Positions 1 to 55,321 of a stretch of 64,000 nt of DNA are shown here, piece by piece. Numbering within the stretch: position 1 is the first letter of the stretch; every line of letters starts with the position of its first letter. The stretch is from an uncultured virus (IMG/VR IMGVR_UViG_3300048006_000261). Taxonomy: Duplodnaviria; Heunggongvirae; Uroviricota; Caudoviricetes. The notes below the pieces were generated by a model. The model did not search any database. It was not told the origin of the DNA and was given only the letters and a program-made list of their open reading frames with translations. The position numbers were made by a program, and so were the translations under genes. The stretch lies in IMG/VR virus record IMGVR_UViG_3300048006_000261; one strand, 5' to 3'.

Positions 1-122
1 AATATCTTTATTATCGTTTAGGTATATATTACAACGCACGCCGTCAAGCTTTGGTTGTATATAGGTTGGTTGGTTAAAGTCACAGCGTTTTTCGCTGAAC
101 TTATGGGCTAACATTGGTTTTT

Positions 123-413
123 TCATAGGTTGTCTAGTTTTTTTTGTATTATATTTAGTTTGTTTTTTATTATTGCAGCTTTTCTGTACTGCTCTTTGTC
201 TTCGTACAAATTTAATAGTGTCATTAGCCTAGCTAACTCAGATATAAGAAACTCTTCGTCTGTTTCTTTAAAAGGTATTTGACCTTTTATTATTTCGTTA
301 ATAGACATAGGAGACATAGCATGAACCTCGTTCTTCATTCTGTAAAGAAGTTTATCTAGTACTAAGTCTGCAATTGTATCTAACATATCGTCATCTATAT
401 TATCGTACTTCAT
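123..413 (-). CDS. Hypothetical early protein with UVR-like C-terminus
   Basis: 96-aa ORF; C-terminal EQYRKAAIIKNKL resembles a UvrB/C helical motif; the true start may be further downstream because this ATG lies inside a promoter-like motif. Confidence 0.5.
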   Translation of the reverse strand: MKYDNIDDDMLDTIADLVLDKLLYRMKNEVHAMSPMSINEIIKGQIPFKETDEEFLISELARLMTLLNLYEDKEQYRKAAIIKNKLNIIQKKLDNL

Positions 414-867
414 TCGTATTTAATTTGTTATAGTTAGTATATTCATATTCATCTCTAGACCATTTTTTGATCACATCATCTACTTTGTTTACAAATACAC
501 ACTCATTAGTATATTGATTCCAACAAGTTATAAACACGTCAGGTTTACCTGTCCATATAATATAAGTATAATGATGATCTATTCTGTCATGAGAAGGATA
601 TAAGTATTGGCTATTGTAATGAAAGTCTTTTACTAAGTGTGATGCTATTCTTGATCCATCACCAAAGCTTGTAAAACCTTTTACCTCTTGCATATGCTTA
701 ACCCAGTTAGCAAGCTCTACAGCTCTATACTCAGGGTAACCATCGTGATGTAAATACATATTTACATAGCTATCGTCACTGACTACACTTGGGTTACAAG
801 CAAAGCCTAGGTCATTGTCTTCCGCAGTCGACCTTGGTACTACCATTGTTACATTTCTTGTTGCCAT
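400..867 (-). CDS. Phage hypothetical protein (YLHHDGYP motif)
   Basis: 155-aa ORF tightly packed with its neighbours. Confidence 0.6.
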   Translation of the reverse strand: MATRNVTMVVPRSTAEDNDLGFACNPSVVSDDSYVNMYLHHDGYPEYRAVELANWVKHMQEVKGFTSFGDGSRIASHLVKDFHYNSQYLYPSHDRIDHHYTYIIWTGKPDVFITCWNQYTNECVFVNKVDDVIKKWSRDEYEYTNYNKLNTNEVR

Positions 868-868
868 A

Positions 869-1159
869 TTAATCTAGTAATTTCATATAAGCTTTAGGAT
901 TTTCTGATCTAAACCAGTCCATACCTTTAATTAATTCTTTTCTTAGTTTAGTTATATATGGATCTTCTACATCTGAGTCGTTATCAAACGTTACTTCTAT
1001 AGTATAAGTAGCACCCATTATAAAGTCATACATACTAGCTTCTGCTCCGGTTAATAGGCAACTTTCACCACTAAATGGATTTGTTACCTCTTCTGGTGAG
1101 CTGTACCAGGCGCCGTTAAACCATTTTGGTTTAGATTGGTTGCTCTTCGTATCCTTCAT
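869..1159 (-). CDS. Hypothetical early protein
   Basis: 96-aa ORF in the tightly packed minus-strand run. Confidence 0.6.
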   Translation of the reverse strand: MKDTKSNQSKPKWFNGAWYSSPEEVTNPFSGESCLLTGAEASMYDFIMGATYTIEVTFDNDSDVEDPYITKLRKELIKGMDWFRSENPKAYMKLLD

Positions 1160-1592
1160 CTATAAGTATATCTTTAATTTCTTGTTCTGTTATTTCACAA
1201 ATACCTTGGTATATTTCGCTGAACATATCTGAGTACCAGTACTCATCTATAAAATCATCCGCTACATATATAACAGAATCTATACGACCCATACCTCTTA
1301 TTGCATCTTCTAATTCTGTAGCTAAATTACTATCATAGTAATGTACATGTTCACCTACGCATATATTTCTATCATCATACGTAGCAATATAAACTTCGTA
1401 GCCATCTGCCGTTGATTCAGGGTAAACATAATAGTCTGCGTTTTGTGTGTAGTCATTAGTAATTTCTACATCATAGTATTTTAATACTGCTTGTTGCACA
1501 AACTCTTCATCTTGTATCTTGTCACCGTCAGTTGGTAAACCTCTTTTGATCATTTCTTTTTCTATGATCTCGTCTGTTATATATTTTTTCAT
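1131..1592 (-). CDS. Acidic hypothetical protein
   Basis: 153-aa D/E/Y-rich ORF overlapping its neighbours. Confidence 0.6.
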   Translation of the reverse strand: MKKYITDEIIEKEMIKRGLPTDGDKIQDEEFVQQAVLKYYDVEITNDYTQNADYYVYPESTADGYEVYIATYDDRNICVGEHVHYYDSNLATELEDAIRGMGRIDSVIYVADDFIDEYWYSDMFSEIYQGICEITEQEIKDILIDEGYEEQPI

Positions 1593-1828
1593 GATTTATC
1601 AATTATTTTTTCACCGTACATAAAGCTGTAGCAATCTAGTTCCCAACTGTTTAAGTCACCGTAGGTTAATATATCTCTAACTTCATAGACATTTAGTTCC
1701 GACCACATCATTTTTGACATAAGCGTATACTTTAGTCTTTTAGCGCTATCGTATTTTCTAGCACTAGCTTTTAAACTTGTTTTAACGTCGGGCAATAGTT
1801 TGTCGTAGACGGTTTTAATTTTTGTCAT
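1589..1828 (-). CDS. Hypothetical early protein
   Basis: 79-aa ORF just downstream of the promoter-like motif at 1854-1886. Confidence 0.6.
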   Translation of the reverse strand: MTKIKTVYDKLLPDVKTSLKASARKYDSAKRLKYTLMSKMMWSELNVYEVRDILTYGDLNSWELDCYSFMYGEKIIDKS

Positions 1829-1885
1829 AGTTTTATTTATTTTTAATTACATTTATATAATCGTTTAGCATTCGTATTTGTTTTG

Positions 1886-1958
1886 TTGCGGCAGAAGGAT
1901 TCGAACCAACGACCTCATGGTTATGAGCCATGCGAGCTGACCACTGCTCTATACCGCA
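1886..1958 (-). tRNA. tRNA-Met (CAT), initiator-like D arm
   Basis: Minus strand: acceptor TGCGGTA/TGCCGCA, D arm GAGCAGTGGTCAGCTC, anticodon arm CATGG-CTCATAA-CCATG, T loop TTCGAAT; T stem GTTGG/CCTTC has two U-U mismatches; CCA not encoded. Confidence 0.85.
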
Positions 1959-1965
1959 AATAAGT

Positions 1966-2044
1966 TACCGGCTGTCACTACAACTGGCTTTGTACAACTG
2001 ATACCTCAAGGAAGCCGAGACGTCGATTTACTGTTAAGCCGGTA
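1966..2044 (-). ncRNA. Putative small structured RNA A
   Basis: Closed by 8-bp TACCGGCT/AGCCGGTA; inner GGCTT/AAGCC; abuts the tRNA; strand inferred from neighbours. Confidence 0.4.
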
Positions 2045-2052
2045 TTATATTA

Positions 2053-2140
2053 AGAGAGATGTGCCCACGAAGTACTTCGCTTACGTAAATCCGCCGTTGT
2101 TTTGTCGACAAGTATATCTCTGCATATCTGCCATCTCTCT
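2053..2140 (-). ncRNA. Putative small structured RNA B
   Basis: Closed by 9-bp AGAGAGATG/CATCTCTCT; internal palindromes; strand inferred from neighbours. Confidence 0.4.
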
Positions 2141-2145
2141 GTTAG

Positions 2146-2231
2146 TGGAAGTGGGCGGAGTCGAACCGCCGTTTGAGATACTGTCTTGCCATAGTCGGCG
2201 AAGATACTGTCTCACTTACCTTATCACTCCC
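2146..2231 (-). ncRNA. Minimal tmRNA-like tRNA-like domain (no tag reading frame)
   Basis: Acceptor GGGAGTG/CACTTCC-A with G3-U70 and A73, T arm GGCGG-TTCGACT-CCGCC, unpaired D region, long hairpin in place of an anticodon arm. Confidence 0.7.
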
Positions 2232-2234
2232 ATT

Positions 2235-2399
2235 TCGAGGCACCAGTTGTGGACAGGTAGTTAACTAGTATTGTCATTTATCCACACTTTCTGTTTTGTT
2301 GAAGTTATAAACTTCACGGAGCCATCCGGTACTCTTTCAACCGTTCCAACCGTTTGTTCTTACCCTTCAACTAACGTGACCTGTATGCCGCCACCTCGA
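2235..2399 (-). ncRNA. Putative structured RNA C (about 165 nt)
   Basis: Ends pair TCGAGG/CCTCGA, nested ACAGGT/ACCTGT; lies 3 nt from the tmRNA-like 5' end. Confidence 0.4.
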
Positions 2400-2484
2400 T
2401 TGCTAGCTATTCACTTATGTGTAATCATCGAGCCGTTTCTCACATCCCGCTAAGGAATTACGCCTTTAATCATACCTAATTAAG

Positions 2485-2661
2485 TTACTCGTCTAGCGGG
2501 TTTCTTGTTTTATCATATAGCTTTACAGCTTCTCTAATATCTTTTATATCATAATCTATTAGTATTCTGTATGCTTTTCTGTTTGGCGCATGTGTGTATA
2601 GCACGTCTTTGTGCTCTTTTTCTTCTTGCATCTCAAACCATTTTTTTACTGAATCACTCAT
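2485..2661 (-). CDS. Small hypothetical protein (58 aa, not in ORF track)
   Basis: MSDSVKKWFEMQEEKEHKD...RNPLDE*, overlapping the stop of the upstream ORF. Confidence 0.55.
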   Translation of the reverse strand: MSDSVKKWFEMQEEKEHKDVLYTHAPNRKAYRILIDYDIKDIREAVKLYDKTRNPLDE

Positions 2662-2863
2662 ATATATTTAAGTATTTATTAGCGAGTTTACCGATAACGA
2701 GCTTCATCAAGTAACTATGAGCTTCGTTTATATCTGGTGTAGAGCTTAGTAATGACTTAGCATCGCTACCGGTTAATGTCCACTCGCATATTCTGTATAT
2801 TTCTTCTACTGCTTCATGTGTAGCTTTATCAGCTAACATATCAAATTCTTTAGTTTTACTCAT
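2654..2863 (-). CDS. Hypothetical early protein
   Basis: 69-aa ORF. Confidence 0.55.
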   Translation of the reverse strand: MSKTKEFDMLADKATHEAVEEIYRICEWTLTGSDAKSLLSSTPDINEAHSYLMKLVIGKLANKYLNIYE

Positions 2864-2876
2864 AGTTTTATATTTA

Positions 2877-3089
2877 TTATTTTAGACATGTGCCATAACC
2901 TCTGCGAGCGCCTAGCTTTCTGATACGTTTCGCCTGTTCTTTCGGCATAATCTGAATGGTATTACCGGTTTTGTGGTAAGTGACAGCAATACAGCCATAT
3001 GGCTCGGTAGTGCTACATTCGACGCAAGAGGTATAACCTAGTGCTAAACGCTGTGGAGGTATTGTATTATTACATTTACATTTTTTCAT
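2877..3089 (-). CDS. Small zinc-finger protein (DksA/TraR C4-like)
   Basis: CKC...IPPQRLALGYTSCVEC resembles the TraR/DksA zinc-finger pattern IP..RL......C..C. Confidence 0.55.
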   Translation of the reverse strand: MKKCKCNNTIPPQRLALGYTSCVECSTTEPYGCIAVTYHKTGNTIQIMPKEQAKRIRKLGARRGYGTCLK

Positions 3090-3098
3090 ACAAATATA

Positions 3099-3521
3099 TT
3101 ATCGTGCTATTTTCGTATTTGTTTTGTAATTTCTTAAATAAAATTCTAACATAAATTTAAGTCTTGCCATACCGCTATATATTTTAGCTCTTGATATAGT
3201 TGTATATTTTTTAGTTATAGTTTTGTCACCTTCTAAAAATACCCACCTTTTCTCACGTTTATATGTAGGATTTAGTTGATAATTAGATGAACAAGAGTTT
3301 TGGTTTCTAACATAGCCAGTTTTAAACACAGCAAGTCTTAAATTTTCACCGTTTTTATATCTTCTTCTTGATGGTACAGGAAATTCAAACTCTCTTGTGC
3401 CATTTATTGCTTGTCTTTGTGTAGTTATTTCTTTAATATTATACTCGACTAGTAATGCTCTTGCAAACGAGTCTTCTAACATTTGTTGTTCTTGTCTCCA
3501 AGTGTATTTAGATTTGGTCAT
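3099..3521 (-). CDS. Hypothetical early protein
   Basis: 140-aa ORF. Confidence 0.6.
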   Translation of the reverse strand: MTKSKYTWRQEQQMLEDSFARALLVEYNIKEITTQRQAINGTREFEFPVPSRRRYKNGENLRLAVFKTGYVRNQNSCSSNYQLNPTYKREKRWVFLEGDKTITKKYTTISRAKIYSGMARLKFMLEFYLRNYKTNTKIAR

Positions 3522-3738
3522 TGTAGTAAGGTTTAGTATAGTTTACATTAGGTTTTATAGATGCAGCGACACTTTGTCTGAACTGCCATTCTCTTTTACG
3601 ATAATCATAGTCTGTACACCATTTTTTGTATGCAATAGTGCGTGTAGATTCACCGTACTTAGTTTCGAAATCTGTTACTTCTTTGAGTTTAGCAGCAATT
3701 TGATCTGCTGGATAATCTTTAAATTCTGAATTATGCAT
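3508..3738 (-). CDS. Hypothetical early protein
   Basis: 76-aa ORF overlapping the next gene. Confidence 0.55.
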   Translation of the reverse strand: MHNSEFKDYPADQIAAKLKEVTDFETKYGESTRTIAYKKWCTDYDYRKREWQFRQSVAASIKPNVNYTKPYYNDQI

Positions 3739-4261
3739 AGTAGTGATCGCCGATTTTACAGTAGTTAGTATATTCTTTTACGTAAGGTATTCTTGTTACT
3801 ACTTTGTCACCTAGCCTTATATTTTTAGGTTGATCAAAGACGTCATAAGTAAGTATTTTTAATGATTTCATATTTTAATTTATTATATTATCGTGCTTTA
3901 TTCGTATTTATATTGTATTTTCTATACCAATTATCTTCTATCATCATTATTTCTTGACGAGTTAGCTTTAGTATTTTTTTACTTGTATGTTTTCTAGAGC
4001 GTGCCATAGTGTACATCAGTATATTCTTCAATTGTTACATATTTTTGTAGATCGTGAGAGTATATCATACCATCAATCACATGCTCGTCACTGAATGACC
4101 ATACTTTTTCGTGTTTAAATTTTCTCATAGTTTATTAGTTGATTTGTAGAACTTTATTCTGTCAAGAACATCTTGTCTAGTTATTTTATTTTCCATTTGT
4201 TTACCGATATAGTAAGTCATATCGATTTCTTTACCGTTTTCACACGTCAATACCCACTTCA

Positions 4262-4456
4262 TTAGTTATATATTCCGAAGTTAGCATTAGAAGCATCGAT
4301 CTCACCTGTTAGTAAACCTACTATCATGAATAGTATTCCTGAAACCGCCATTGGCATTAATACTCCGAAGGCTAATAGCTCAAAAGCTAGTTCTGTTACT
4401 GATTTACCTTTTACATAGTTGTACACTTTATTCTGTACGAATTTAATTTTACTCAT
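4262..4456 (-). CDS. Small single-pass membrane protein
   Basis: 64 aa with a hydrophobic segment; promoter-like motif 20 nt upstream. Confidence 0.55.
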   Translation of the reverse strand: MSKIKFVQNKVYNYVKGKSVTELAFELLAFGVLMPMAVSGILFMIVGLLTGEIDASNANFGIYN

Positions 4457-4676
4457 AGTTATTTATTTATTACGTTTATATTATCGATTAGTTGTCGTAT
4501 TTAGTTTGTTAGTAGAAGTCATAGTAGATATCAGTTACGTGAGCTCGCTCATCATAAGTTAGTTCATTCCAATGCTTTTTGTATAATCTGAAAGAGATTT
4601 TTAGTAGATATGTATTTCTATGTGCCATATTATTATATTTAATTAGTTACTGATAACACTCTGTTACCTTAGTTAG

Positions 4677-4717
4677 TAGACATGGTGAGAATCGAACTCA
4701 CGTTAACCATTATGTCT
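4677..4717 (-). ncRNA. Mini tRNA-like element (acceptor stem plus T arm only)
   Basis: AGACAT-AATGGTTAAC-GTGAG-TTCGATT-CTCAC-C-ATGTCT-A. Confidence 0.5.
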
Positions 4718-4774
4718 TTACTTGTTCGCAATTTATACTGTTAGAAACAAGTGGAACTCACAGTGAAGTTAAAG

Positions 4775-5002
4775 TTATACTAACTCTTTACCTCTTACTA
4801 TTAACGGAATGTTATTAGTAGCAGTGTACGACTTGTACTTTAACCAACATGGTAAGTTAGTTAGTGTATCTTTCATTATTGAAAATACTTTGTCGTGATT
4901 GTAAATTATCTTGTCACCTTTTTTGTTAGTGAATTCGAATGTTACATTTTTTCCGATTAGTGATTGTCTTACAACAAATCTTTTAGTGATTAAATTACTC
5001 AT
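4775..5002 (-). CDS. Hypothetical protein, first gene of the early arm
   Basis: 75-aa ORF downstream of the motif at 5039-5071. Confidence 0.6.
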   Translation of the reverse strand: MSNLITKRFVVRQSLIGKNVTFEFTNKKGDKIIYNHDKVFSIMKDTLTNLPCWLKYKSYTATNNIPLIVRGKELV

Positions 5003-5102
5003 AGTTATTATATTTATTTATTATTAATTAGTTACATAAGTATAATCGAATGTGTATCGTATTTGGTTTGTAAAAGTATATGTATTGTTTAGTAAATGAA
5101 TA

Positions 5103-5193
5103 TGTCATTATGTCATTGCGCACTGTGTCACGTTGTCATACAATAATAAATAAGTTTGTCATGTCATTGTGTCATACATATGTCATTGTGTCA
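5103..5193. repeat. Cluster of nine TGTCA direct repeats in the divergent intergenic region
   Basis: TGTCA at 5103, 5111, 5126, 5134, 5157, 5162, 5170, 5181 and 5189. Confidence 0.7.
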
Positions 5194-5453
5194 TACGTGA
5201 AATGTATATAGAAAACTATGTAGCGAAGCGAGTTTAGTTGTCTGGTTGTACACGGTTAGCATAGGAAATACGGCGGCAAACGGATTATACAGGTGGGGCC
5301 CGGTAAAATAAAAGGACTTTCCATTTTGGCAGGGTGGTATAGGGGAGGGGGGCAACACAACTCCCCAAAATATCTTACATTTTTTTTTATGACATTAGCC
5401 TCTAATAGTATACTAGTAACAGGCAAGTGTCACTTTTAACTTTACTTTACTTT

Positions 5454-5475
5454 ATGTGATTATACTAGTATCAAC
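5454..5475 (+). promoter_or_regulatory. Putative late promoter motif ATGTGAnTATAnTAnTAT
   Basis: Close copy at 20833-20856 and weaker copy near 39765; each is upstream of plus-strand genes. Confidence 0.4.
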
Positions 5476-5488
5476 AAATACATAAACT

Positions 5489-5722
5489 ATGCCTAAGCAG
5501 AAATTGTCCGCAAGAGCTGCAGCGGCTAAAAAGAAAAGAGACCTAGCAGCTGCCAACACACGAAGAAGAGAGAAGATGAGAGCTGAAAACCAACGTAAGA
5601 GAAGAGCAGCTAAGAAAGCAGGTAAAAACATAAAAGGTAAAGACTATGACCACAAAACCAGAAGATTTACCAGTATAAAAGCGAACCGTGGAAACAGAGG
5701 ACACGGTACGAAGAAAGAGTAA
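5489..5722 (+). CDS. Small highly basic protein
   Basis: 77 aa, K/R-rich; KDYDH...ANR resembles a degenerate HNH-like motif. Confidence 0.6.
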   Translation: MPKQKLSARAAAAKKKRDLAAANTRRREKMRAENQRKRRAAKKAGKNIKGKDYDHKTRRFTSIKANRGNRGHGTKKE

Positions 5723-5754
5723 CCAAACCTCTGCTAACCTAAAATACCATAAAC

Positions 5755-6075
5755 ATGACGTATTTTTATTACAAGACTAATACGTGGAATAGTCAACCAC
5801 AAATCTCCGAAGAACAAATAAAACTTTGGAAACACCTTTCAGAAAAGAAAAACTGGAGGATAGTACAATTACCAAATGGTTTTTATCAAACAGAGTACAA
5901 AGACATCGATTGTCCTTGTAATCCTGAAGATGATACATGCTGTGAAAAATGGCATGATGTTACAAGAAGAGAAACTATGGACGGAGCAGAAGCTGCAATT
6001 GATGGAAGCATCGAGCACTATGCTAAGAAAGTAGACTTCTTAAAAGGACCAAAAGTAGTTAAGACATTTAAGTAA
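5755..6075 (+). CDS. Hypothetical protein
   Basis: 106-aa ORF. Confidence 0.65.
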   Translation: MTYFYYKTNTWNSQPQISEEQIKLWKHLSEKKNWRIVQLPNGFYQTEYKDIDCPCNPEDDTCCEKWHDVTRRETMDGAEAAIDGSIEHYAKKVDFLKGPKVVKTFK

Positions 6076-6094
6076 TTAATTAAAATCAAATTTA

Positions 6095-7666
6095 ATGGAA
6101 TTTAATCAACCTAGCGAAATTGTCAAAGATCTTTACTTTGGTGATGAAGCTAAATCAAAAATTATGAATGGTGTAGATAAACTAGCGAAAGCTGTTAAAT
6201 CTACTCTAGGTGCCTCAGGTAAGTGCGTAGTATACGAAGATGGATTAGGCAGACCAGTTATAACTAAAGATGGTGTAACTGTAGCTGATTCAGTAGTACT
6301 AATGGATCCTGTAGAAAATATAGGTGCAACACTTATTAAAGAAGCATCGAAAAACACAGTGAAGGAAGCAGGTGACGGTACCACTACGGCTATCGTCCTT
6401 GCTGAATCACTATTAAAAGAGGTCAACTCACAAGTAAAGTCTAACGATAGTATAAGAGATATAAAACATGGCATTGAAACAGGATATAAAAAGGTTGTGG
6501 AATACCTTTCAGAACACAGCAAAGCAGTATCTGGCGATCAGCTTACAAGCGTTTCAGCAATTAGCTGCAACAATGACAAAGCTTTGGGGCAAATTATTGC
6601 AGAAGCTTACAAAAAAGTAGGTAAGGACGGTGTAGTGCTGATGGAGGAGAGCGAAAGCGATGAAACCTACACAGAGATAGTAGAGGGTGTACAGTTCGAT
6701 AGTAGCTTAACATCACCTCACTTTGCTACAAATAAAGATAAAATGGTGTCAGAACTAGAAAACCCAGCGGTTTTAATAGTTTCATCACCTATACCTAACA
6801 TAAGAAAGATACAAAGTGTATTAGAATATGTTATAAAGAAAAGAAAACCTCTACTTATTATAGCAGAGGTTGACCAACAGGTCAAATCAGCGTTACTAAT
6901 GAACAAAGTTAAGGGTAATATCAATGTTAATATCATAGATCCACCTGGTTTTGGCCCTAGTAAAGCAGATACAATAGAAGATTTAGCATTTTTAACTGGA
7001 GCGCAAGTTATGAACGAAGAGCTTGGAGACGATTTAGATCTGATCCAGCCAGATTGTTTGGGTGAAGTAGTAAAATCTGTCACAGATAACAGAACTACAG
7101 TCCTTACAACTGGTTTAAAAGCGGTAGACCTCGAAGAAAGGATAAAAGATGTTAAAAATAAGATTAAAAAAGAGAAAAAACCTTATTTTAAGAAAAGATT
7201 ACAAGACAGATTAGCTATGTTAAGCGGTTCTGTTGGTATAATTAACGTAGGTGCTGATTCTAAAGTAGAATTAAAGGAAAAAAAGGATAGAGTTGAAGAT
7301 GCTATCTATGCAGTTAAGGCTGCATTACAAGAAGGTATTGTTTCTGGAGGTGGAATAGCACTATTAAACGCTGCTAATTCAATAAAACCAGATAATACTG
7401 GCGAAAAAATACTAAAAACTGCTATTTTAGCACCTTTTAAAACTATTTTAGACAATGCTGGTATAGTTTTAATAAAAACTCCTACAAAAATAGGGTATGG
7501 TATAGATGTAACAACCGGAAAAGAGGTTGATATGATAAAAAGTGGCATAATAGACCCAGTCTTAGTCACAAAGACAGCACTAAAGAATGCAGTTAGTGTT
7601 GTTTCTACTATAATTTCTGCAGATTGTGTAATCTCTAATATAAGAATACCAAATGCAAGCAGTTAA
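6095..7666 (+). CDS. groEL: Phage chaperonin GroEL
   Basis: ITKDGVTVA, AGDGTTTA, KKDRVEDA, EGIVSGGG and GIIDP motifs; no GGM tail. Confidence 0.97.
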   Translation: MEFNQPSEIVKDLYFGDEAKSKIMNGVDKLAKAVKSTLGASGKCVVYEDGLGRPVITKDGVTVADSVVLMDPVENIGATLIKEASKNTVKEAGDGTTTAIVLAESLLKEVNSQVKSNDSIRDIKHGIETGYKKVVEYLSEHSKAVSGDQLTSVSAISCNNDKALGQIIAEAYKKVGKDGVVLMEESESDETYTEIVEGVQFDSSLTSPHFATNKDKMVSELENPAVLIVSSPIPNIRKIQSVLEYVIKKRKPLLIIAEVDQQVKSALLMNKVKGNINVNIIDPPGFGPSKADTIEDLAFLTGAQVMNEELGDDLDLIQPDCLGEVVKSVTDNRTTVLTTGLKAVDLEERIKDVKNKIKKEKKPYFKKRLQDRLAMLSGSVGIINVGADSKVELKEKKDRVEDAIYAVKAALQEGIVSGGGIALLNAANSIKPDNTGEKILKTAILAPFKTILDNAGIVLIKTPTKIGYGIDVTTGKEVDMIKSGIIDPVLVTKTALKNAVSVVSTIISADCVISNIRIPNASS

Positions 7667-7910
7667 TTATTACATAGTAGTAGAAAAGATCAAAGAAAAG
7701 CCTAAGAAAGTTGCTGGTTTAATTTTAACAGAAAAAACAGACAGTGACAATAGGTATATAAAAGCAAAAGTTGTAACAAAAGGTAACTTAGTCGAGGGTA
7801 TTAATGACAATAGCATTATATACTATGATAAACACGCTGGACACGGTATACACTGGAAAAATAAACTATTGCAAGTTATAAAAATACAAGATGTAGTTTT
7901 AGTAGAATGA
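7653..7910 (+). CDS. groES: Co-chaperonin GroES
   Basis: 85 aa, GLILT mobile loop, directly downstream of groEL. Confidence 0.85.
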   Translation: MQAVNYYIVVEKIKEKPKKVAGLILTEKTDSDNRYIKAKVVTKGNLVEGINDNSIIYYDKHAGHGIHWKNKLLQVIKIQDVVLVE

Positions 7911-8347
7911 AACTAAGTCCACAAGATTTAAGAGATATTGGCTTACTAAAGTATTACAGGCTCGTTCGTAAATGGGCCTGTAAAACTTATAAGCTAAATG
8001 ATGCTGATTTAGAACTTTTAGTGTATTTAGATTGCAAATCGCGATTTACACGTAATAGCTTTATAGATGGCTCTTATACTTACAGTTGGGATAAAAACCG
8101 CTGGGAACGTCTAAGGCAACAAGGTTGGATAGAAGTTTGGAGGCATCGTAACCGCACTACAATTAAATATAGTATATACAAAACATCATTTAAATGCTCT
8201 CAACTTATATCCCGTATATACAGAATTCTATTAGGGGAAGAGGATATACCCACTTCAGAAAGAAACATATTTTTTAACAATAAATCATATACTGATAAAG
8301 TTTATAACAAAGCTATAGATGATATGATAAAAGACAAAAACAGATAA
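7907..8347 (+). CDS. Hypothetical protein, possible winged-helix regulator
   Basis: LNDADLELLVYL...RLRQQGWIEV pattern resembles MarR-like wHTH. Confidence 0.45.
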   Translation: MKLSPQDLRDIGLLKYYRLVRKWACKTYKLNDADLELLVYLDCKSRFTRNSFIDGSYTYSWDKNRWERLRQQGWIEVWRHRNRTTIKYSIYKTSFKCSQLISRIYRILLGEEDIPTSERNIFFNNKSYTDKVYNKAIDDMIKDKNR

Positions 8348-8349
8348 TT

Positions 8350-8883
8350 ATGGCAAACATATTCCAAAACCCGGGAATTAAAAACAACCCAGAAAAAGGT
8401 AGATACTCAGATCCTATTATTCCAGGAATGGGTTCACCTTACAATAAAAGAGGTTGTAAATCATCATACAAGCAAGTGAGTCCAAAAGGAACCATGCCAG
8501 CGACCGTAGAAGATGACTATCAAGAAGAGGGTAGACGCAATCATGTAAAACACCCAACTCTTACTGTTGGTGGTAAACCTTTAGAATATAATCCTAAATT
8601 TGATCCAAATAAATTAATTACCGATCAAAGTGAGAAATCAGATAGAGAGTCACAAAAAAGTAACAATAAGCAAACAGCGTCTCAAGTTAATGCGTTTGGC
8701 CCAGGTTCTAAACTAGCAAAAGAAAATCCTGCTAAAGCTGCAAATATATTTAACGGTATAAAAAGCAACAATAAGCAGGTATTTAAAAACCCAATGGGAA
8801 GAGGTATTAATACTTTACAAAGTCAAGATAACCAAAAACCTTGCAATTGTGCAAAAAAATTAGACAACTGTAACTGTGGGTAA
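8350..8883 (+). CDS. Hypothetical low-complexity protein, possibly virion-associated
   Basis: 177-aa N/K/P-rich ORF. Confidence 0.55.
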   Translation: MANIFQNPGIKNNPEKGRYSDPIIPGMGSPYNKRGCKSSYKQVSPKGTMPATVEDDYQEEGRRNHVKHPTLTVGGKPLEYNPKFDPNKLITDQSEKSDRESQKSNNKQTASQVNAFGPGSKLAKENPAKAANIFNGIKSNNKQVFKNPMGRGINTLQSQDNQKPCNCAKKLDNCNCG

Positions 8884-9586
8884 CATTATAAATAGAGTAA
8901 AAGCTGCACAAGGCTTAAAGTTTCCACCAAACCAAGAGGTAACTATGAACGCCGATGGTAGTGGTGGACCTATATCTATTAATAAACAGACTGACTGGAA
9001 AAGTTGGGGACACGGTGCTTTAGATGTTTTAGGTATGGTACCTGCTTTTGGTAACATAGCAGATGGTATAAATGCAGCTTGGTACTTAGCAGAGGGTGAT
9101 TTAAAGAATGCTGGTTTATCAGGTGCTGCCGCAATACCAGGTCTTGGATTACTTGGTGGTGGAGCAAAATTAAGTATGAAAGCTGCGGGTGCTATGAATG
9201 ATATTAATAAAGCTAGAAAAGTAGCTAAACATACAGATCCTTCAGCAGTTAAGATAGCTTCAAAACTTTATTCAAGTGGTGGTAAAAAAATAGTAAATGC
9301 TTTACCAGAAGTAGTTAAAGATAATATAAGGCAAGTACCAAAAAATATAAAAAAGAATTTTAAAGAAGGTAGTAAGTTTAACATATTTGGAAATAGACCT
9401 GTTAAACTAACTAAAGCAGATAAAGTTTTAGAATATGGTGCTCCCGGTTATGGTTTTGTGGATGGTGTTTATAGAGGAGCAACTGGTCAAACAGAACCTA
9501 TAGAACCTGGTAGTTATAAAAAACAAAGATATATGGGTGGTGTTGCATCATCTAATAGACAAAGCTTAAAATCTTATAAACAATGA
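8876..9586 (+). CDS. Protein with pre-toxin TG (PT-TG)-like segment
   Basis: HGALDVLGMVPAFGNIADGINAAWYLAEGD...AGLSGAAAIPG. Confidence 0.65.
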   Translation: MGNIINRVKAAQGLKFPPNQEVTMNADGSGGPISINKQTDWKSWGHGALDVLGMVPAFGNIADGINAAWYLAEGDLKNAGLSGAAAIPGLGLLGGGAKLSMKAAGAMNDINKARKVAKHTDPSAVKIASKLYSSGGKKIVNALPEVVKDNIRQVPKNIKKNFKEGSKFNIFGNRPVKLTKADKVLEYGAPGYGFVDGVYRGATGQTEPIEPGSYKKQRYMGGVASSNRQSLKSYKQ

Positions 9587-10014
9587 GTTTTAAATTAAAG
9601 AGTAAAGCAGAATTATTTGGTTTAAGAACTATTGTCAATGGTAACATACCTGTTTTTAACAAAAAACTAGATCCAGGTGTAGTTGCTGAAGCAAATAGAG
9701 ATAATACTATATTTGTAGCTGAAGAAGCTCCTGATAGTTATTTAAATGCTAATCTTACTTTAGAAGAGGAGATGGAGCATATATACCAGATGAAACGTGG
9801 TAATCAATATACTAATGAACATATTATTGAAAACACACCATCTGAATTTAATATATATAAAAGAGAAGGTACTAAAATGATACCTATTACTAACAAAGCT
9901 GGTAAGTCTTTTCAAGAAGGAGATGCAGGTGCATCATGGGAAGCAGAAGCTAAAGCTAACGCTAAAAACAATATAAACAATGTACAAGACATGGTTTCAA
10001 AGGCAAAAAGCTAA
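9583..10014 (+). CDS. Zincin-like protein with a variant HExxH site
   Basis: EANRDNTIFV...LEEEMEHIYQM...WEAEA. Confidence 0.45.
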   Translation: MSFKLKSKAELFGLRTIVNGNIPVFNKKLDPGVVAEANRDNTIFVAEEAPDSYLNANLTLEEEMEHIYQMKRGNQYTNEHIIENTPSEFNIYKREGTKMIPITNKAGKSFQEGDAGASWEAEAKANAKNNINNVQDMVSKAKS

Positions 10015-10300
10015 TTCACCTTATAGAGCATCAGCTGCATTAATTGATGGAGCTGCTAGCATTGGTAGAGGTGTGCCTATAGCAGACTCTGCTGCAGAGC
10101 TAAAGCCAAAATCTCAAAAATCAAATAATTATAATCCGCCTGGTCAAGACCAAAACGAAGGTGAAGACACAGACGCTGTTGCTTTAAAAGCTTTAAAAGA
10201 TAGTTTATTAAATGAAACAGACGAAGCTAAAAAAGCTAAAATCCAAGAACAAATAAATGCACTTGAAGTTTCAATTGCAGCTAAAGAACAAACAAAATAA
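9980..10300 (+). CDS. Hypothetical protein
   Basis: 106-aa ORF with a coiled-coil end. Confidence 0.55.
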   Translation: MYKTWFQRQKANSPYRASAALIDGAASIGRGVPIADSAAELKPKSQKSNNYNPPGQDQNEGEDTDAVALKALKDSLLNETDEAKKAKIQEQINALEVSIAAKEQTK

Positions 10301-10304
10301 TATT

Positions 10305-12149
10305 ATGGCATCACCAATAACACAAAGAGTAAAATCGTACGCTAAACAAGTAGTAATCGATCAAGACAAACTTAAAATAGGAGGTACACCTGGAGTAGAA
10401 GATGTAGTTACTAAAATAAATAAAGATCTAGGTGTCACATTCACTGGAGAAGACGGTGGAGATCAGTACGTAAAAGACATAACAGCTGAAAGAGACAGAA
10501 GACAACCTAATATGCCTCTTCAAGATTATATGAAGTTAAAAGACAGACAAAATGCTCAGTCTGGTTCTGTTGGATTTCAAGGTACCGAAAATGGTGAAAA
10601 CGTAGATGCTACACAGTGGAGCAACCAAGATGTTGAATATGGTAATAGAGAAGAAGAACAAATAATTAAAGGGTCAGAAGGTAAACCTGGTGTAGACGCT
10701 TATTTAGATCCTCAGTTTAAAACTAACTTAAGTAGAAGCCAAGCTGCTAATCAAAGAAGAAGAGAAAACATGCTTGATAGATCTACTAAAAGAGATAATA
10801 AAAGAAACTACAGACTATTAAAGAAAACAAAAAGAAAAGTTGGTTCTTTAACACCTGAGCAACAAAAGCAATTTGATTACTTAGAAAAAAATAGATTTAC
10901 AGGTGGTCAAATGAATGACTATAACAAAGATTCTAGTGGTAATATAACTGGTAATAAACTGCAAGATGGTAGTTCTAGCTTGAATAACCCTATTGGTTGG
11001 ACAGAGCAAACCTCTGGTACTGGAAAAGGTGGTCAAACACAAGCTACACTTGCAAATATAGAAAGATATAAGAAAGAATACGGTGTTGAGCCAACAATAG
11101 TAGATGGTAATATTAGTTTCCAAAAGCAAAATGCTAAAAGTGGATATTCACAAAAAGGTTATAGTGGTTATCAAAACGCGCCTTCACCTAAAAAAAATAA
11201 GATTTATGGTAAGATTGGTGAAGCTATAGGTGGAATTGTTGGTAAATTTTCTAAGAAGAAAAAAATAGATTTTAAATCTACAAACACTAAGTTAAGTAAA
11301 GATCCTAAACAAATTGGAGATGGTAGAAACTTACCAGATATTAAAAAACCAAAACCATCCTCTGGTGGTGGAGCAACGGGAGGTTCAATTGGAGGTGCTT
11401 TGAAAACCATTGGTCAAATCGGTTTAGGTGCTACACTTGGATATGGTGCGGCTAAAATGTTATTAGGTTCTACTAACAAACCAGATAACAATCCGAATCC
11501 AAGCCCTGAGCCTTCAAAACCTAAAGTGTCTTACGATGAAGCTTACAAAAATAGAGATAGAAAGACATATGGTCATATGAATAAATCTAACTATATAAAA
11601 GAAGCTAAAAGACAAAACGATGTATTTGCTAAGACTGGCAAATGGGATTATAAGAACGCTCCTAAGGATCCAGGACCAGTAAGTTCTATTAAACCTTCTA
11701 AAGTAGCACCAGTATCAAGTGGTGCACTTGAGGTTAAAGCTCCTGTGAATTTAGATAAAATATCTCAACCAGAAAGAAAAAAACCTATTATTAGTAATAA
11801 ACAAGAAAAAGCTAATAATAAGTTAGAAAGATTACAAGGTAGAAAAGTAACACCAAGACGTCAAAACAGGATAGCTAAACAACAAGATAAAGCCGCGGGA
11901 TTAAGTAGAGGAGAAGTTAGAAAAAACAAGCTAATGAGAAAAGCTGGTAACATGCCTTCTGAATCTCAATCATCAATATCTATGCCAAGAGTAATGACTG
12001 GTGCACAATACAACCAAGTTAAGAAATTAGGTAATGGAAGTGCTATAGACGCTGTAACAAGTGGTAAGGTAACAATACAAGGATTAGAAGATCAATTAAA
12101 ATCGGCTAGTGGATTTAGACAAAAAGGCTGGTCAGGTTATCAAAAATAA
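10305..12149 (+). CDS. Large basic low-complexity protein, probable internal virion protein
   Basis: K/G/Q-rich; likely start MASP at 10305. Confidence 0.55.
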   Translation: MASPITQRVKSYAKQVVIDQDKLKIGGTPGVEDVVTKINKDLGVTFTGEDGGDQYVKDITAERDRRQPNMPLQDYMKLKDRQNAQSGSVGFQGTENGENVDATQWSNQDVEYGNREEEQIIKGSEGKPGVDAYLDPQFKTNLSRSQAANQRRRENMLDRSTKRDNKRNYRLLKKTKRKVGSLTPEQQKQFDYLEKNRFTGGQMNDYNKDSSGNITGNKLQDGSSSLNNPIGWTEQTSGTGKGGQTQATLANIERYKKEYGVEPTIVDGNISFQKQNAKSGYSQKGYSGYQNAPSPKKNKIYGKIGEAIGGIVGKFSKKKKIDFKSTNTKLSKDPKQIGDGRNLPDIKKPKPSSGGGATGGSIGGALKTIGQIGLGATLGYGAAKMLLGSTNKPDNNPNPSPEPSKPKVSYDEAYKNRDRKTYGHMNKSNYIKEAKRQNDVFAKTGKWDYKNAPKDPGPVSSIKPSKVAPVSSGALEVKAPVNLDKISQPERKKPIISNKQEKANNKLERLQGRKVTPRRQNRIAKQQDKAAGLSRGEVRKNKLMRKAGNMPSESQSSISMPRVMTGAQYNQVKKLGNGSAIDAVTSGKVTIQGLEDQLKSASGFRQKGWSGYQK

Positions 12150-27758: not shown

Positions 27759-28991
27759 ATGGCAGAAAAAGAAAAGCCGCAAGAGGTTGTAGAAGAAATT
27801 CAACCAGTTGCACAAGAACAAGCAGCAATCAAAGATAGTGAAACTATAACTGATGCTAAAATCGAAGCTCCTATAAAAGAGGGTGGAGATATGAAAATGA
27901 AAGAAAAACCTAAAAGACCAAAGCAATTAGTCAATCAAAATGAAGACAACGATGCTATTAAGGTTGATCTTTCAAAAAAAGAAGAAGTTACTCCTGTAGA
28001 AGAAACAGAGGTAAAAGATACACCTGTTGTCGAGCAAGAGGTTAAAGAAGAAGAGCAAACTTCAGTAGTTGAAGAGATTACAAATGAAGAAGTTGAAGAG
28101 CAAACAGAGGAGCTACAAGAACAAGTAGAAGAAGCTGTACAAGAAGCTCAAGACACATCTGAACCATTACCAGAAAACATACAAAAAGTCGTGGACTTTA
28201 TGAATGAAACTGGCGGTAGCTTAGAAGAGTATGTTAGATTAAATCAAGATTACTCTAAAAAAGATGATAAATCTTTACTTAAGGAATACTACAAGCAAAC
28301 AAAACCTCATTTAAATGATGATGAAATTGGTTTCTTAATGGAAGACAATTTTGAATATGATGAAGAAGTTGATGAGGATAGAGATATTAAAAGAAAAAAA
28401 TTAGCGCTAAAAGAGCAAGTTGCCAGTGCTAAAAGCCACTTAGACGGGCTAAAGTCTAAATATTACGAAGAAATTAAAGCTGGAAGCAGGTTAGCGCCTG
28501 AGCAAAAGAAAGCAATTGATTTTTTCAACCGTTACAATCAAGAAGCAGAAACTACACAAAAGGTAGTTCAGGAACAACAAACCAACTTTTTAAATAAAAC
28601 CAACGAGGTTTTTAACGATAAATTCAAAGGTTTTGAATATAATATTGGTGAAAAAAAGTTTAGGTTTAATGTAAAAGATAGTGACAAGGTTAAAAATGAC
28701 CAAAGCGATATTAACAATTTTATTAAGAAGTTTCTTGATAAAAATGAAAATATGAGTGATGCTAAAGGTTATCATAAATCTTTATTTACTGCTAATAATC
28801 CTGACGCTGTAGCGAAACACTTTTACGAACAGGGCAAAGCAGATGCTATCAAGGATAGTATAGCTAAGTCTAAAAACATCAACATGGATCCTAGGGAAGC
28901 ACAGTCAAATGTGATACCTACTTCTGGTTGGTCTGTAAAAGCTGTTCCTGGTGATACAGTTTCTGATTTTAAGATTAAGATTAGAAAATAA
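27759..28991 (+). CDS. Scaffolding-like protein
   Basis: Acidic disordered N-terminus, located between portal and capsid. Confidence 0.65.
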   Translation: MAEKEKPQEVVEEIQPVAQEQAAIKDSETITDAKIEAPIKEGGDMKMKEKPKRPKQLVNQNEDNDAIKVDLSKKEEVTPVEETEVKDTPVVEQEVKEEEQTSVVEEITNEEVEEQTEELQEQVEEAVQEAQDTSEPLPENIQKVVDFMNETGGSLEEYVRLNQDYSKKDDKSLLKEYYKQTKPHLNDDEIGFLMEDNFEYDEEVDEDRDIKRKKLALKEQVASAKSHLDGLKSKYYEEIKAGSRLAPEQKKAIDFFNRYNQEAETTQKVVQEQQTNFLNKTNEVFNDKFKGFEYNIGEKKFRFNVKDSDKVKNDQSDINNFIKKFLDKNENMSDAKGYHKSLFTANNPDAVAKHFYEQGKADAIKDSIAKSKNINMDPREAQSNVIPTSGWSVKAVPGDTVSDFKIKIRK

Positions 28992-53510: not shown

Positions 53511-54160
53511 TCTTCAGATAATTCAGAATCTTTATACTCATCAAACCAAGGTCCACCTTCTGTGTAATGAATAGCTCTTGCGTTTGTCTTAGTTATTTCA
53601 TCAATACCAACTAACATATTATATCTTTTAGGTATTTCACCTATATCATTTTCATTTAAAAATTTAAACTCATGTAGTTGAGAAGCCGTTGCATTGTCTA
53701 GATATTTTTTAGATAATTTTCTATTTAACCTATTACAGTTAAATAACATCAACGAGCTCCAGTTTTTCTTTGGATAAGACTTGTTGTTAACTCCATTCAT
53801 TTTGTTAGACTTAACTTCATAGTCATCATGTTTAACTACTGATATTGGTTTATCACCTAGGTATATACTAACTTCTCTAGGATCTACTCTCCACAAGAAA
53901 TCGTTATCACAAAACAAAGCATAACCCTTGTAGTTCATTAACATTGGCACATAAAATCTAGTAAAAGAAAACTCAGTAGATTCTCCTTCTATATCTTCCC
54001 TGCCATAAACTCCTATTTCTTTTAATTTAGATTTATCTAAATAAGTTATATTAGCTTCTGGCCAATATTTTAATATTGAAGCTTTACAAACTTTTGTTGC
54101 TTCAGGGTATCTTGAGTCATGCCCTATAAAAATTTTAATACTTCCTGGTTTTTTATTCAT
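53483..54160 (-). CDS. GT-A (GT8-like) glycosyltransferase
   Basis: STEFSFTRF, FCDND (DxD), NWSSLMLFN, HYTEGGPW. Confidence 0.8.
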   Translation of the reverse strand: MNKKPGSIKIFIGHDSRYPEATKVCKASILKYWPEANITYLDKSKLKEIGVYGREDIEGESTEFSFTRFYVPMLMNYKGYALFCDNDFLWRVDPREVSIYLGDKPISVVKHDDYEVKSNKMNGVNNKSYPKKNWSSLMLFNCNRLNRKLSKKYLDNATASQLHEFKFLNENDIGEIPKRYNMLVGIDEITKTNARAIHYTEGGPWFDEYKDSELSEEWWKIYNSL

Positions 54161-54506
54161 TATTTACTTTTTTACCTGATGTTTTTCTTATTATATCATC
54201 GTGATTAAACTCTGCCCAATATAATTCAAATGCAACTCCAGATTCTTTACCTTCAAACTGATGATACTTACCTGGTTTAACCATTGTAAAATCACCTGCT
54301 TTTAATATGGTTTCGTCAACAAGACCTTGATCGTCTTGCCATACTCTTATTATCATCTCTCCAGACTCTACAAAAAAACCGTTCCATTTAAATTTATGTT
54401 CGTGCTCTGAGCACTTGTATCCTTTATTAAATTCTATTCGGTGAAACTCTAATACACCGTTCTTGTGTATCATCTCTGTTGCACCCCATATCTTTCCTGC
54501 TTTCAT
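54153..54506 (-). CDS. Cupin, sugar isomerase-like
   Basis: CSEHEHKFKWNGFFVESG...PGKYHQF. Confidence 0.75.
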   Translation of the reverse strand: MKAGKIWGATEMIHKNGVLEFHRIEFNKGYKCSEHEHKFKWNGFFVESGEMIIRVWQDDQGLVDETILKAGDFTMVKPGKYHQFEGKESGVAFELYWAEFNHDDIIRKTSGKKVNNE

Positions 54507-55321
54507 TTCTTTTGATTATGTTTAAAGTAAGGCTTTCTCCAGTTTTGTGAATTTATTGGGAACCTTCTATTTATTATTACTTGTTTTTTTGGTTTTTCTA
54601 ACACATCGTGTAGATCAATCCATTCGTGCCTCTTGTTATCAGCTCTGTTTGTTATCTTAAACTTTTCTAAACTTTGATTATCTTTATTAGTAAAGTGAAC
54701 ACTACATAATATTCTAGGTCCTATAGTTTCTACCTTGTGAAACTGATATTGAGGTATGTAAAGCATATCACCCTCGTCTAATATAAACTCTTCTAATATT
54801 TCTTTAGGCTTGTTAGGTACAAACTCTTTATATATCGTCCATTTAACTTTACCGCTTTGGTGAAACAAAAAATTATCAGTAGCATCACCGTGAGCAGGAA
54901 AGCTTTTAGATCCAGCTTTGGGTGAAACATATACATTAACTTGACCTTTTTTAAAGTACCTTTCAAACTCAAAAACAACATCTAACAATTGTTTACTTTC
55001 GTATTCAGCAAATGGTATTACAAATGATTTACCTTTTTTCCAAAAATTATGTATACCTGCTTTGGTAAACATAGGTTGATTTGATTTTTTTCTTTTAACT
55101 TTATCAAAACACCATCTTTCATCTTTATCGTTATAATCAAGAACCTGAAGATGAGGTACGTTAGGGTATCTGTTTATGTACTTAGTTAAATGACCCCAGT
55201 GAAACAAATCTTTAAATTTATTTCTTCTAATAACTAAATGTTTTTTACCCCAGTACTCTTTAAAAAATAAGTCTATTGGTATTGGATCTAGTATTTCTTT
55301 TAATGTTATTTCTTTTTTCAT
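54503..55321 (-). CDS. JmjC 2OG-Fe(II) oxygenase (YcfD/RoxA-like)
   Basis: FFKEYWGKK, AHGD (HxD), GDMLYIP...H. Confidence 0.8.
   Translation of the reverse strand: MKKEITLKEILDPIPIDLFFKEYWGKKHLVIRRNKFKDLFHWGHLTKYINRYPNVPHLQVLDYNDKDERWCFDKVKRKKSNQPMFTKAGIHNFWKKGKSFVIPFAEYESKQLLDVVFEFERYFKKGQVNVYVSPKAGSKSFPAHGDATDNFLFHQSGKVKWTIYKEFVPNKPKEILEEFILDEGDMLYIPQYQFHKVETIGPRILCSVHFTNKDNQSLEKFKITNRADNKRHEWIDLHDVLEKPKKQVIINRRFPINSQNWRKPYFKHNQKK

Follow-up and report, generated by a model that had tools for sequence, protein, structure and literature searches.

A tmRNA-like RNA without a tag reading frame and with an exchangeable central hairpin in the genome of a marine podophage

On the minus strand of a 64,000-nt stretch of DNA from an uncultured virus (IMG/VR record IMGVR_UViG_3300048006_000261; the whole stretch is referred to as the window), positions 2231..2146 resemble the two ends of a transfer-messenger RNA (tmRNA) closed by a hairpin. 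This locus raises the question whether the segment is a gene and, if so, what an RNA that possesses a tRNA-like domain (TLD) but cannot encode a tag would do in an infected cell. In a preliminary description made from the sequence alone, it had been proposed to specify an 86-nt RNA with alanine identity elements and no mRNA-like domain. The segment reads exactly as given there, and the gene is genuine; it belongs to a type already known, the 'TLD-only' phage tmRNA without a coding sequence (CDS). Its parts are listed here; position p of the RNA corresponds to window coordinate 2232-p.

2146..2231, minus strand: CDS-less tmRNA-like RNA of 86 nt, TLD plus cargo hairpin, defined by sequence, fold, an Rfam match at the ends only, our own covariance model R1 (78.6 bits), and covariation
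2225..2231, minus strand (RNA 1-7): 5' strand of the acceptor, GGGAGUG, with G3 paired to U70
2215..2224, minus strand (RNA 8-17): unpaired analogue of the D region, AUAAGGUAAG, ten bases including GG, D stem absent
2174..2214, minus strand (RNA 18-58): helix-2-like cargo hairpin M1, 41 nt, closing helix UGAGA/UCUCA, defined by its fold
2154..2173, minus strand: AAC junction (RNA 59-61), invariant, and T arm GGCGG/UUCGACU/CCGCC (RNA 62-78, 2170-2154) with covarying T-stem pairs 2 and 3
2146..2153, minus strand: 3' strand of the acceptor, CACUUCC (RNA 79-85), and discriminator A73 (A86 of the RNA, at 2146), followed by CUAA; CCA is not encoded

The same arrangement is obtained by folding at minimum free energy (-30.9 kcal/mol, z -2.86), and one of 200 shuffled sequences was equally stable. 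The acceptor consists of seven base pairs, G1-C72, G2-C71, G3-U70, A4-U69, G5-C68, U6-A67, and G7-C66 (2231-2225 with 2153-2147). In the D region, A8, G12, G13, U14, and A15 are invariant among 16 sequences, and A8, G12, and G13 are conserved positions of the Rfam tmRNA consensus as well. M1 contains AGACAGUAUCU twice, at 2212-2202 and at 2186-2176, around a UCUUCGCC/GGCAAGA stem.

Searching 801 bases at permissive thresholds, the Rfam tmRNA model (RF00023) matched 2231..2143 with 35.7 bits (E 1.3e-12). The alignment covers the first ~17 and the last ~35 model positions and skips ~300 central ones. In this comparison with the tmRNA model, a check suggested in the preliminary description, both ends match with a score that does not reach the gathering cut-off of 47, so that a scan of the window at the gathering threshold reports a tRNA-Met only. 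ARAGORN likewise detected tRNA-Met (1885-1958) alone in the window and no tmRNA. For annotation this means that genes of this type are overlooked by ARAGORN and at Rfam gathering thresholds. No stop codon follows nt 20 of the RNA in any of the three frames and, therefore, no tag reading frame is present. Pseudoknots PK1 to PK4 and the long helix 2 of canonical tmRNA are also absent, the 41 nt between D region and AAC forming a single hairpin. Fold, ends-only match, and lack of a tag frame bear out the proposed TLD layout with alanine identity elements and without mRNA-like domain. Two other assignments were rejected. A tRNA-Ala is not indicated, as ARAGORN and the Rfam tRNA model are silent, the D stem is absent, and the 41-nt hairpin has no 7-nt anticodon loop. 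In a two-piece (permuted) tmRNA the order of the parts would differ; here, the 5' strand of the acceptor precedes the T arm inside one hairpin-closed unit.

Viral loci fetched for comparison are given L numbers, while G001 denotes the record nearest to the window and G006 a complete relative. The exact 22-nt 3' end of the RNA is present in 21 IMG/VR stretches. In 19 of these, the 5' end GGGAGUGAUAAGGUAAG or a one-base variant is found too, with central hairpins that are very different in sequence and length. Model R1, built on 16 distinct sequences, yielded 21 matches of at least 62 bits in 99 sources, and more members were detected among 81 loci fetched via a degenerate 3' pattern. A structural scan of all loci produced 44 distinct sequences, one of which, nested inside L011, was set aside as an artefact; the remaining 43 are short TLD RNAs of 57-147 nt. 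Look-alikes occur in viral contigs of 35-71% GC. ARAGORN called no tmRNA in 20 of the 21 loci with the 22-mer and none in 17 further loci. A blastn search of the RNA against phage records returned only matches of the size of the T arm (E 0.3-0.9) and, at that sensitivity, no copy in a cultured phage.

Tandem TLD RNAs were found in L100 (1344-1522) and L096 (1501-1737). In L100, a copy with A3:U70 (GGACGUG type) lies immediately upstream of a copy with G3:U70; in L096, the second copy (1501-1595) has a broken 5' acceptor strand and the first a T-stem insertion. Full-length tmRNAs were encountered as well. The lone tmRNA called by ARAGORN among the loci with the 22-mer, L095, is the full tmRNA of another phage (1077-1522, 446 nt, 62.2 bits), for which ARAGORN also called a tag peptide, and L087 contains another one (1498-1886, 77.2 bits). 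Both come from fragmentary genomes of phages that are much larger (CheckV completeness 30% of 68 kb and 14% of 43 kb). In the 22 nt of T-arm/acceptor sequence at the 3' end they are identical to the window RNA. A third full tmRNA, 362 nt in length (86.6 bits), belongs to Cellulophaga phage Calle_1 (L231 1501-1862; NC_062744.1 42950-43311). It ends in ...CGCCUCC-A-CUAAUAA, again with CCA not encoded, and the A-CUAA shared with the window RNA suggests a common context of 3' processing in phages of Flavobacteriia.

Covariation was assessed in 35 matches, in an alignment fitted to R1. Three of its rows do not represent intact members: L158 and L132 derive from the ends of longer tmRNAs, and the third is the degenerate second L096 copy. 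Standard pairs fill 96.6% of the cells, compared to 73.8% in column shuffles and 42-59% when partners were slid, and none of 500 column shuffles attained the observed value. The covariation in related phages that the preliminary description had named as a check is evident: changes on both sides affect all five scored helix-2 pairs, T-stem pairs 2 and 3, and acceptor pair 4:69, which is AU in 19 rows, GC in 10, CG in 5, and UG in 1. Because the 22-nt end recurs, the model matches many sources, and the helices covary, the RNA is regarded as a gene; conservation and covariation in many viral contigs put it far beyond chance.

These data also bear on the view that the segment is a functionless relic, either a decayed phage tmRNA or an attP-type copy of the 3' end of host ssrA. 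Degenerate copies do exist (L096:1501-1595 with its broken acceptor, and L032), and the 22-nt 3' end is shared with the full tmRNAs of larger phages mentioned above. Against this stand the compensatory changes in all helices and the conservation of both ends, since an attP site would need the 3' part only. No integrase was found among the 60 open reading frames (ORFs) of the window, in G006, or in G001, and a search for the 22-mer in contigs of species-representative bacterial genomes gave one match, a 903-bp phage fragment. Because an integrase is absent and no representative bacterial genome carries the 22-mer, an integration site was dropped from consideration, and the relic view as a whole, largely refuted by covariation, is barely credible.

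The wobble pair at 3:70 is the identity element of alanyl-tRNA synthetase (AlaRS) in tRNA-Ala and tmRNA, and selection for AlaRS recognition predicts that it is retained. In the 35 aligned rows, 3:70 is GU in 31, the exceptions being L100:1344-1423 and L158 (AU) as well as L096:1501-1595 and L132 (unpaired). Among the 43 distinct sequences, 40 have G3:U70, A3:U70 occurs in L100:1344-1423, L032, and L206, and all 43 end in A. The acceptor types GGGAGUG, GGGCGUG, and GGGGGUG all retain G3:U70. A sample unbiased with respect to the RNA is provided by relatives recognized through their GroEL gene, and L003, L011, L012, L024, and L051 from this sample show G3:U70 and A73 in three acceptor variants, while L032 has A3:U70 and an odd T loop. 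Conservation of the pair in homologues, on which the preliminary description had staked its interpretation, is thus seen in 40 of 43 distinct sequences and in five of six unbiased relatives. L279 and L209 carry G3 and share their cargo with the A3 forms of L100 and L032, respectively; the A3 forms are for this reason considered recent derivatives. As far as the aligned sequences tell, maintenance of G3:U70 beside a covarying 4:69 points to a need for alanine charging, and the pair offers a clean mutational test. Gene and structure, conservation and covariation, retention of G3:U70, and absence of a tag frame have thereby been demonstrated in this analysis.

Regarding function, the RNA most likely competes with host tmRNA for SmpB and stalled ribosomes, a reading drawn by analogy with Mycobacterium phage DS6A and held with middling confidence. 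In the sections consulted of PMC4131195, which cites Mao et al. 2009, a DS6A-like molecule, chargeable or not, is said to inhibit tmRNA strongly, perhaps via SmpB titration, and the statement is repeated in the corresponding part of a 2025 tmRNA database paper (PMC11915505). For the window RNA, we infer transcription, processing, charging, SmpB binding, and an effect on trans-translation as follows. The RNA would be co-transcribed with the tRNA-Met, as judged by their position on the same strand of an RNA island free of ORFs. RNase P would cut at G1 and a 3' endonuclease after A73, whereupon the host would add CCA, which is not encoded here nor in the neighbouring tRNA. Host AlaRS would then charge the RNA with alanine through G3:U70 and A73, and the charged RNA would be bound by host SmpB (and EF-Tu) in the same way as the TLD of tmRNA. 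Without resume codon, tag frame, and pseudoknots, a degradation tag could not be templated, and the RNA would therefore compete rather than tag. Competition for SmpB or stalled ribosomes would damp or bypass the tagging of nascent proteins in the infected cell.

The same structural evidence would fit tag-free rescue, in which the alanyl-TLD RNA enters the stalled ribosome with SmpB and accepts the nascent chain, whereupon drop-off and peptidyl-tRNA hydrolase, or else an ArfB-type factor, resolve the complex without a tag. Ribosomes would be freed for phage translation, and phage proteins made from damaged mRNAs would be spared. Strict retention of G3:U70 argues that charging matters, whereas a passive SmpB sponge, according to the sections of PMC4131195 at hand, needs none, and the CDS-less tmRNAs of jakobid mitochondria and of two plastids are thought to help with incomplete mRNAs in the part of PMC11915505 devoted to them. 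However, no release factor, peptidyl-tRNA hydrolase, or ArfB homologue was detected among the 60 window ORFs scanned, and the experimental statement located in the consulted sections of both papers reports inhibition, not rescue. In addition, Calle_1 and larger phages carry full tagging tmRNAs, and so phages do not avoid tagging as such. Tag-free rescue is a close rival of competition, favoured by the retention of G3:U70, and is nevertheless judged doubtful.

The surroundings of the gene add a second aspect. The RNA is situated inside a 650-nt island without ORFs (1829-2484), between small minus-strand ORFs, together with tRNA-Met and several other structured elements:

1885..1958, minus strand: tRNA-Met (CAU), in the same orientation as the TLD RNA, CCA not encoded, detected by ARAGORN and Rfam
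1965..2040, minus strand: free-standing structured module M5, with CCGGC/GCCGG as closing helix and homology to the L281 cargo
2050..2140, minus strand: module M4, between TLD RNA and tRNA-Met, closed by AGAGAGAUG / CAUCUCUCU, fold z -2.52
2232..2300, minus strand: leader conserved upstream of the TLD RNA, perhaps a promoter or an RNase P leader, recognized by BLAST coverage
2296..2376, minus strand: module M3, with a 7-bp GUUGAAG/CUUCAAC stem, then GGUAAG, and a core showing homology to the L024 cargo
2421..2475, minus strand: free-standing module M2, 55 nt, 100% identical to the cargo of the L011 TLD RNA

The central hairpin of the TLD RNA is a conserved, exchangeable module, and such modules also occur free-standing beside the TLD RNA. 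Four scaffolds that differ from that of the window in their acceptor and T stems contain M1 almost unchanged (L163/L242, L051/L244, L267); in L051/L244, its loop has a 46-nt insertion. A 15-mer of M1 is present in 39 viral stretches, mostly by chance in coding DNA, and in TLD RNAs only of L242, L244/L248, and L267. M2 serves as cargo in L011/L282 and L283 but is a free hairpin in the window, L279, L280, and L281, with differing and covarying closing helices. M5 matches the cargo of a 123-nt TLD RNA in L281, its closing helix covarying as well, and the cargo of L092 is found free between TLD RNA and tRNA-Met in L100 and L102. M4 is conserved in L103, a phage fragment, where its inner hairpin covaries. 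The short hairpin noted in the preliminary description as closing the stem is not a mere cap, since it recurs as a module in other scaffolds. No Rfam family was assigned to the island modules at E<=10 beyond noise; for M2, the best value was 14.8 bits with sR16, which is noise.

Some further features of the island were recorded. The conserved core of M2, ~47 nt, reads GAUUAAAGGCGUAAUUCCUUAGCGGGAUG.GA.AAACGGCUCGAUGA, and UGAU/GAUGA at its base resembles tandem G-A pairs; M2 may represent an undescribed RNA motif. M3, with its stem followed by GGUAAG, resembles a TLD without T arm. In many relatives, tRNA-Met begins 4-6 nt after the TLD RNA. The upstream leader is covered by BLAST matches from 15-24 loci per 20-nt bin, compared to 5-7 in neighbouring coding DNA. 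A sigma-70 promoter scan of 1500-3000 gave no site, and two terminator-like sites in this region are both on the opposite strand. Elsewhere in the window, the M1 motif AGACAGTATCT has two chance matches with one mismatch (1.7 expected) and no target site.

The modules could indicate that the TLD is primarily a carrier or processing scaffold. The structured modules would be the functional parts, the TLD would supply precise ends (RNase P, RNase Z/CCA) and stability, TLD and tRNA would punctuate a polycistronic precursor into small RNAs, and any effect on trans-translation would be secondary. The near invariance of M1 in five scaffolds is in line with this idea, as is the occurrence of M2, M3, and M5, free in the window, inside the TLD scaffolds of L011/L283, L024, and L281, respectively, with closing helices that differ and covary. 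The free L092 cargo in L100 and L102, the 4-6 nt between TLD RNA and tRNA-Met, and the tandems in L100 and L096 fit as well. A processing handle, however, requires neither G3:U70 nor a D region of the tmRNA type, and both are conserved; many cargos are unrelated in sequence and resemble simple helices, and the modules have no Rfam match beyond noise. A carrier role is considered unlikely.

A related proposal, which we put forward tentatively and regard as possible rather than probable, keeps the charging of the TLD. The TLD may serve as an alanine-chargeable vehicle compatible with SmpB and EF-Tu, in which structured modules are swapped at the helix-2 position, the same modules also working free-standing in the island, with a function beyond SmpB titration. 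The hairpin with its double AGACAGUAUCU internal loop might be brought to SmpB or the ribosome or kept stable there, or the tRNA machinery might simply protect and process it. Such a vehicle would be a natural counterpart of engineered tRNA scaffolds. In the literature found, no tmRNA-like RNA is described in which modules are exchanged between a TLD scaffold and plain helices; if functional, such exchange would be a new use of the tRNA-like domain.

Several observations weigh against competition for SmpB as the role of the RNA. The base of helix 2 is GGUAAG...AAC, in contrast to UUCGAC/UUUGAC...GGAC in the Rfam consensus, DS6A, Calle_1, and L095, and recognition by SmpB is not assured because this D-region/helix-2 junction differs from the canonical motif. 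For most loci, U70 and A73 were preset by the search patterns and only G3 was free to vary. The unbiased set is small, comprising the window and six GroEL-anchored relatives, with G:U in five of the six and A:U in L032, and three distinct sequences have A3:U70 (L100:1344-1423, L032, L206). A module shared across scaffolds, with free-standing sisters, is something a pure SmpB sponge does not need. Finally, contigs from RNA libraries, six runs with part of the stretch, of which four from three studies cover the RNA and its neighbours, are no proof of transcription. These contigs carry neither transcript ends nor strand, so that CCA addition is unreadable from them; summed depth is higher over 2160-2423 in run X16, of which related phages sharing the conserved parts may be the source.

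The window itself is phage DNA of ~33% GC. It encodes GroEL, large terminase, portal, virion proteins, ribonucleotide reductase, thymidylate synthase, and a primase-helicase, and it is derived from a lytic-looking marine podophage with its nearest cultured relatives on Flavobacteriia. In tblastn searches with terminase and portal, 87 phage records were detected (68 Flavobacterium, 15 Cellulophaga, two Tenacibaculum, one Maribacter, and one uncultured podovirus), with identities to cultured phages of at most 45%; judged by these relationships, the host likely belongs to the Flavobacteriia. A megablast search with 1-12000 of the window against phage records gave no match. Of the relatives, G006 is complete, its genome measuring 67.5 kb and bearing terminal repeats. 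Pfam searches of the 60 window ORFs revealed no SmpB, integrase, AlaRS, peptidyl-tRNA hydrolase, or CCA-adding enzyme, and SmpB, like integrase, was found neither in G006 nor in G001. GroEL is encoded at 6095-7666 on the plus strand (phrog_5725, E 3e-141), and relatives of it are present in 563 IMG/VR stretches, indicating a large marine phage group. Among the 80 best GroEL loci, six (L003, L011, L012, L024, L032, L051) contain a TLD RNA within the fetched flank, many of these flanks being short.

Two other elements of the window deserve mention. A mini tRNA-like element at 4676-4722 on the minus strand consists of a 6-bp acceptor (AGACAU/AUGUCU), a AAUGGUUAAC linker, and a T arm (GUGAG-UUCGAUU-CUCAC). 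It ends in A-CUAAC like the TLD RNA but has A3:U70, and its fold alone is not significant (z -1.05). L002, L060, and L067 have syntenic copies, at a distance of 1.4-1.9 kb upstream of GroEL, in which the acceptor sequences covary (UGACAU/AUGUCA, AGUUAUG/CAUAACU). An ORF with a JmjC_2 domain (54503-55321, minus strand, E 2.4e-15) lies beside a cupin ORF (54153-54506). JmjC_2 proteins include ribosomal-protein hydroxylases, and the ORF may be another phage gene touching the translation apparatus.

The gene content also bears on a possible role as a decoy, aimed at host defences in which tmRNA or tRNA-like RNAs are sensed or cleaved, for example by SmpB-like domains or t(m)RNA nucleases. By analogy, this could be imagined, as SmpB-like OB folds with predicted tmRNA binding are part of CoCoNuT restriction systems (PMC11090510, in the section concerned) and t(m)RNA fragments take part in the action of a staphylococcal phage anti-CRISPR (PMC11662646, likewise). 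In the window and its relatives, however, no connection of the RNA with such a system is apparent and a partner protein was not found, which makes a defence decoy highly unlikely. Competition with host tmRNA remains the preferred reading, and manipulation of ribosome rescue and tagging in the host by a small RNA may be a common strategy of phages.

Other viruses possess tRNA-like elements associated with structured small RNAs. The tRNA cluster of phage T4 contains stable RNAs, and murine gammaherpesvirus 68 has chimeras of tRNA-like elements and pre-miRNAs. In these cases, tRNA-like elements are joined to or flank structured small RNAs, the ends of which are set by tRNA-processing enzymes, and they provide a functional analogy for a carrier role. 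The elements are not tmRNA-like and have no alanine identity, and no homology is claimed. Canonical tmRNA shares acceptor, T arm, architecture of the D region, and G3:U70 with the window RNA but has pseudoknots, a resume codon, and a tag frame, none of which is present in the window RNA, and a different junction. Tag-less tmRNAs of organelles, to which the RNA had been likened at the outset, are a valid parallel: the relevant part of PMC11915505 describes CDS-less tmRNAs in jakobid mitochondria and two ~65-bp plastid genes, thus TLDs without mRNA-like domain. They are set beside the window RNA by description; they are organelle-encoded, non-viral, and have a nucleus-encoded SmpB as partner, and modular cargo is not mentioned in that part of the paper.

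The closest counterpart comes from a phage. Table 2 of Hudson, Lau and Williams 2014 (PMC4131195) lists an ssrA of 'Mycobacterium phage DS6A (TLD only)'. In the literature on TLD-only or tmRNA-like RNAs of phages, searched in the main texts, the DS6A statements stand alone; a paper on an OM43 phage and one on AcrIIIA1, considered as further precedents, were rejected, since the former concerns a full two-piece phage tmRNA and the latter host t(m)RNA fragments. A tag-less phage tmRNA is thus already in print, DS6A being the single named case in the parts of the literature found; the window RNA is not the first and is less novel than the preliminary description had assumed. New points are its wide distribution in marine flavophages, the tandem copies, and the exchangeable central hairpin, so that beyond this single case a covarying family of CDS-less tmRNAs is apparent in abundant marine phages of Flavobacteriia.

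The DS6A gene was located at 28478-28560 of JN698994, where RF00023 gives an ends-only alignment with 43.2 bits, G3:U70, and A73 followed by CUA. Both RNAs are phage-borne and ~80 nt long, with a G3:U70 and A73 acceptor, a stemless D region, a T arm, and a helix 2 closed by a short hairpin; both lack a tag frame, do not encode CCA, and have an A-CUA ending. Their scores, 43.2 bits for DS6A and 35.7 for the window RNA, are in both cases derived from the ends only and below the gathering cut-off of RF00023. Model R1 found no match in DS6A (61,589 bases, E<=1), and a detectable sequence relationship is absent. By these comparisons, the two are RNAs of the same kind, probably with independent origins. 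They differ in the junction, which is the canonical CGAC...GCAC with a 20-nt closing loop in DS6A and GGUAAG...AAC with a conserved, exchangeable cargo in the window RNA, and in their carriers: DS6A is a temperate siphophage of 69% GC with an integrase, whereas the window belongs to a podophage of ~33% GC without integrase, which houses its RNA in an island together with a tRNA.

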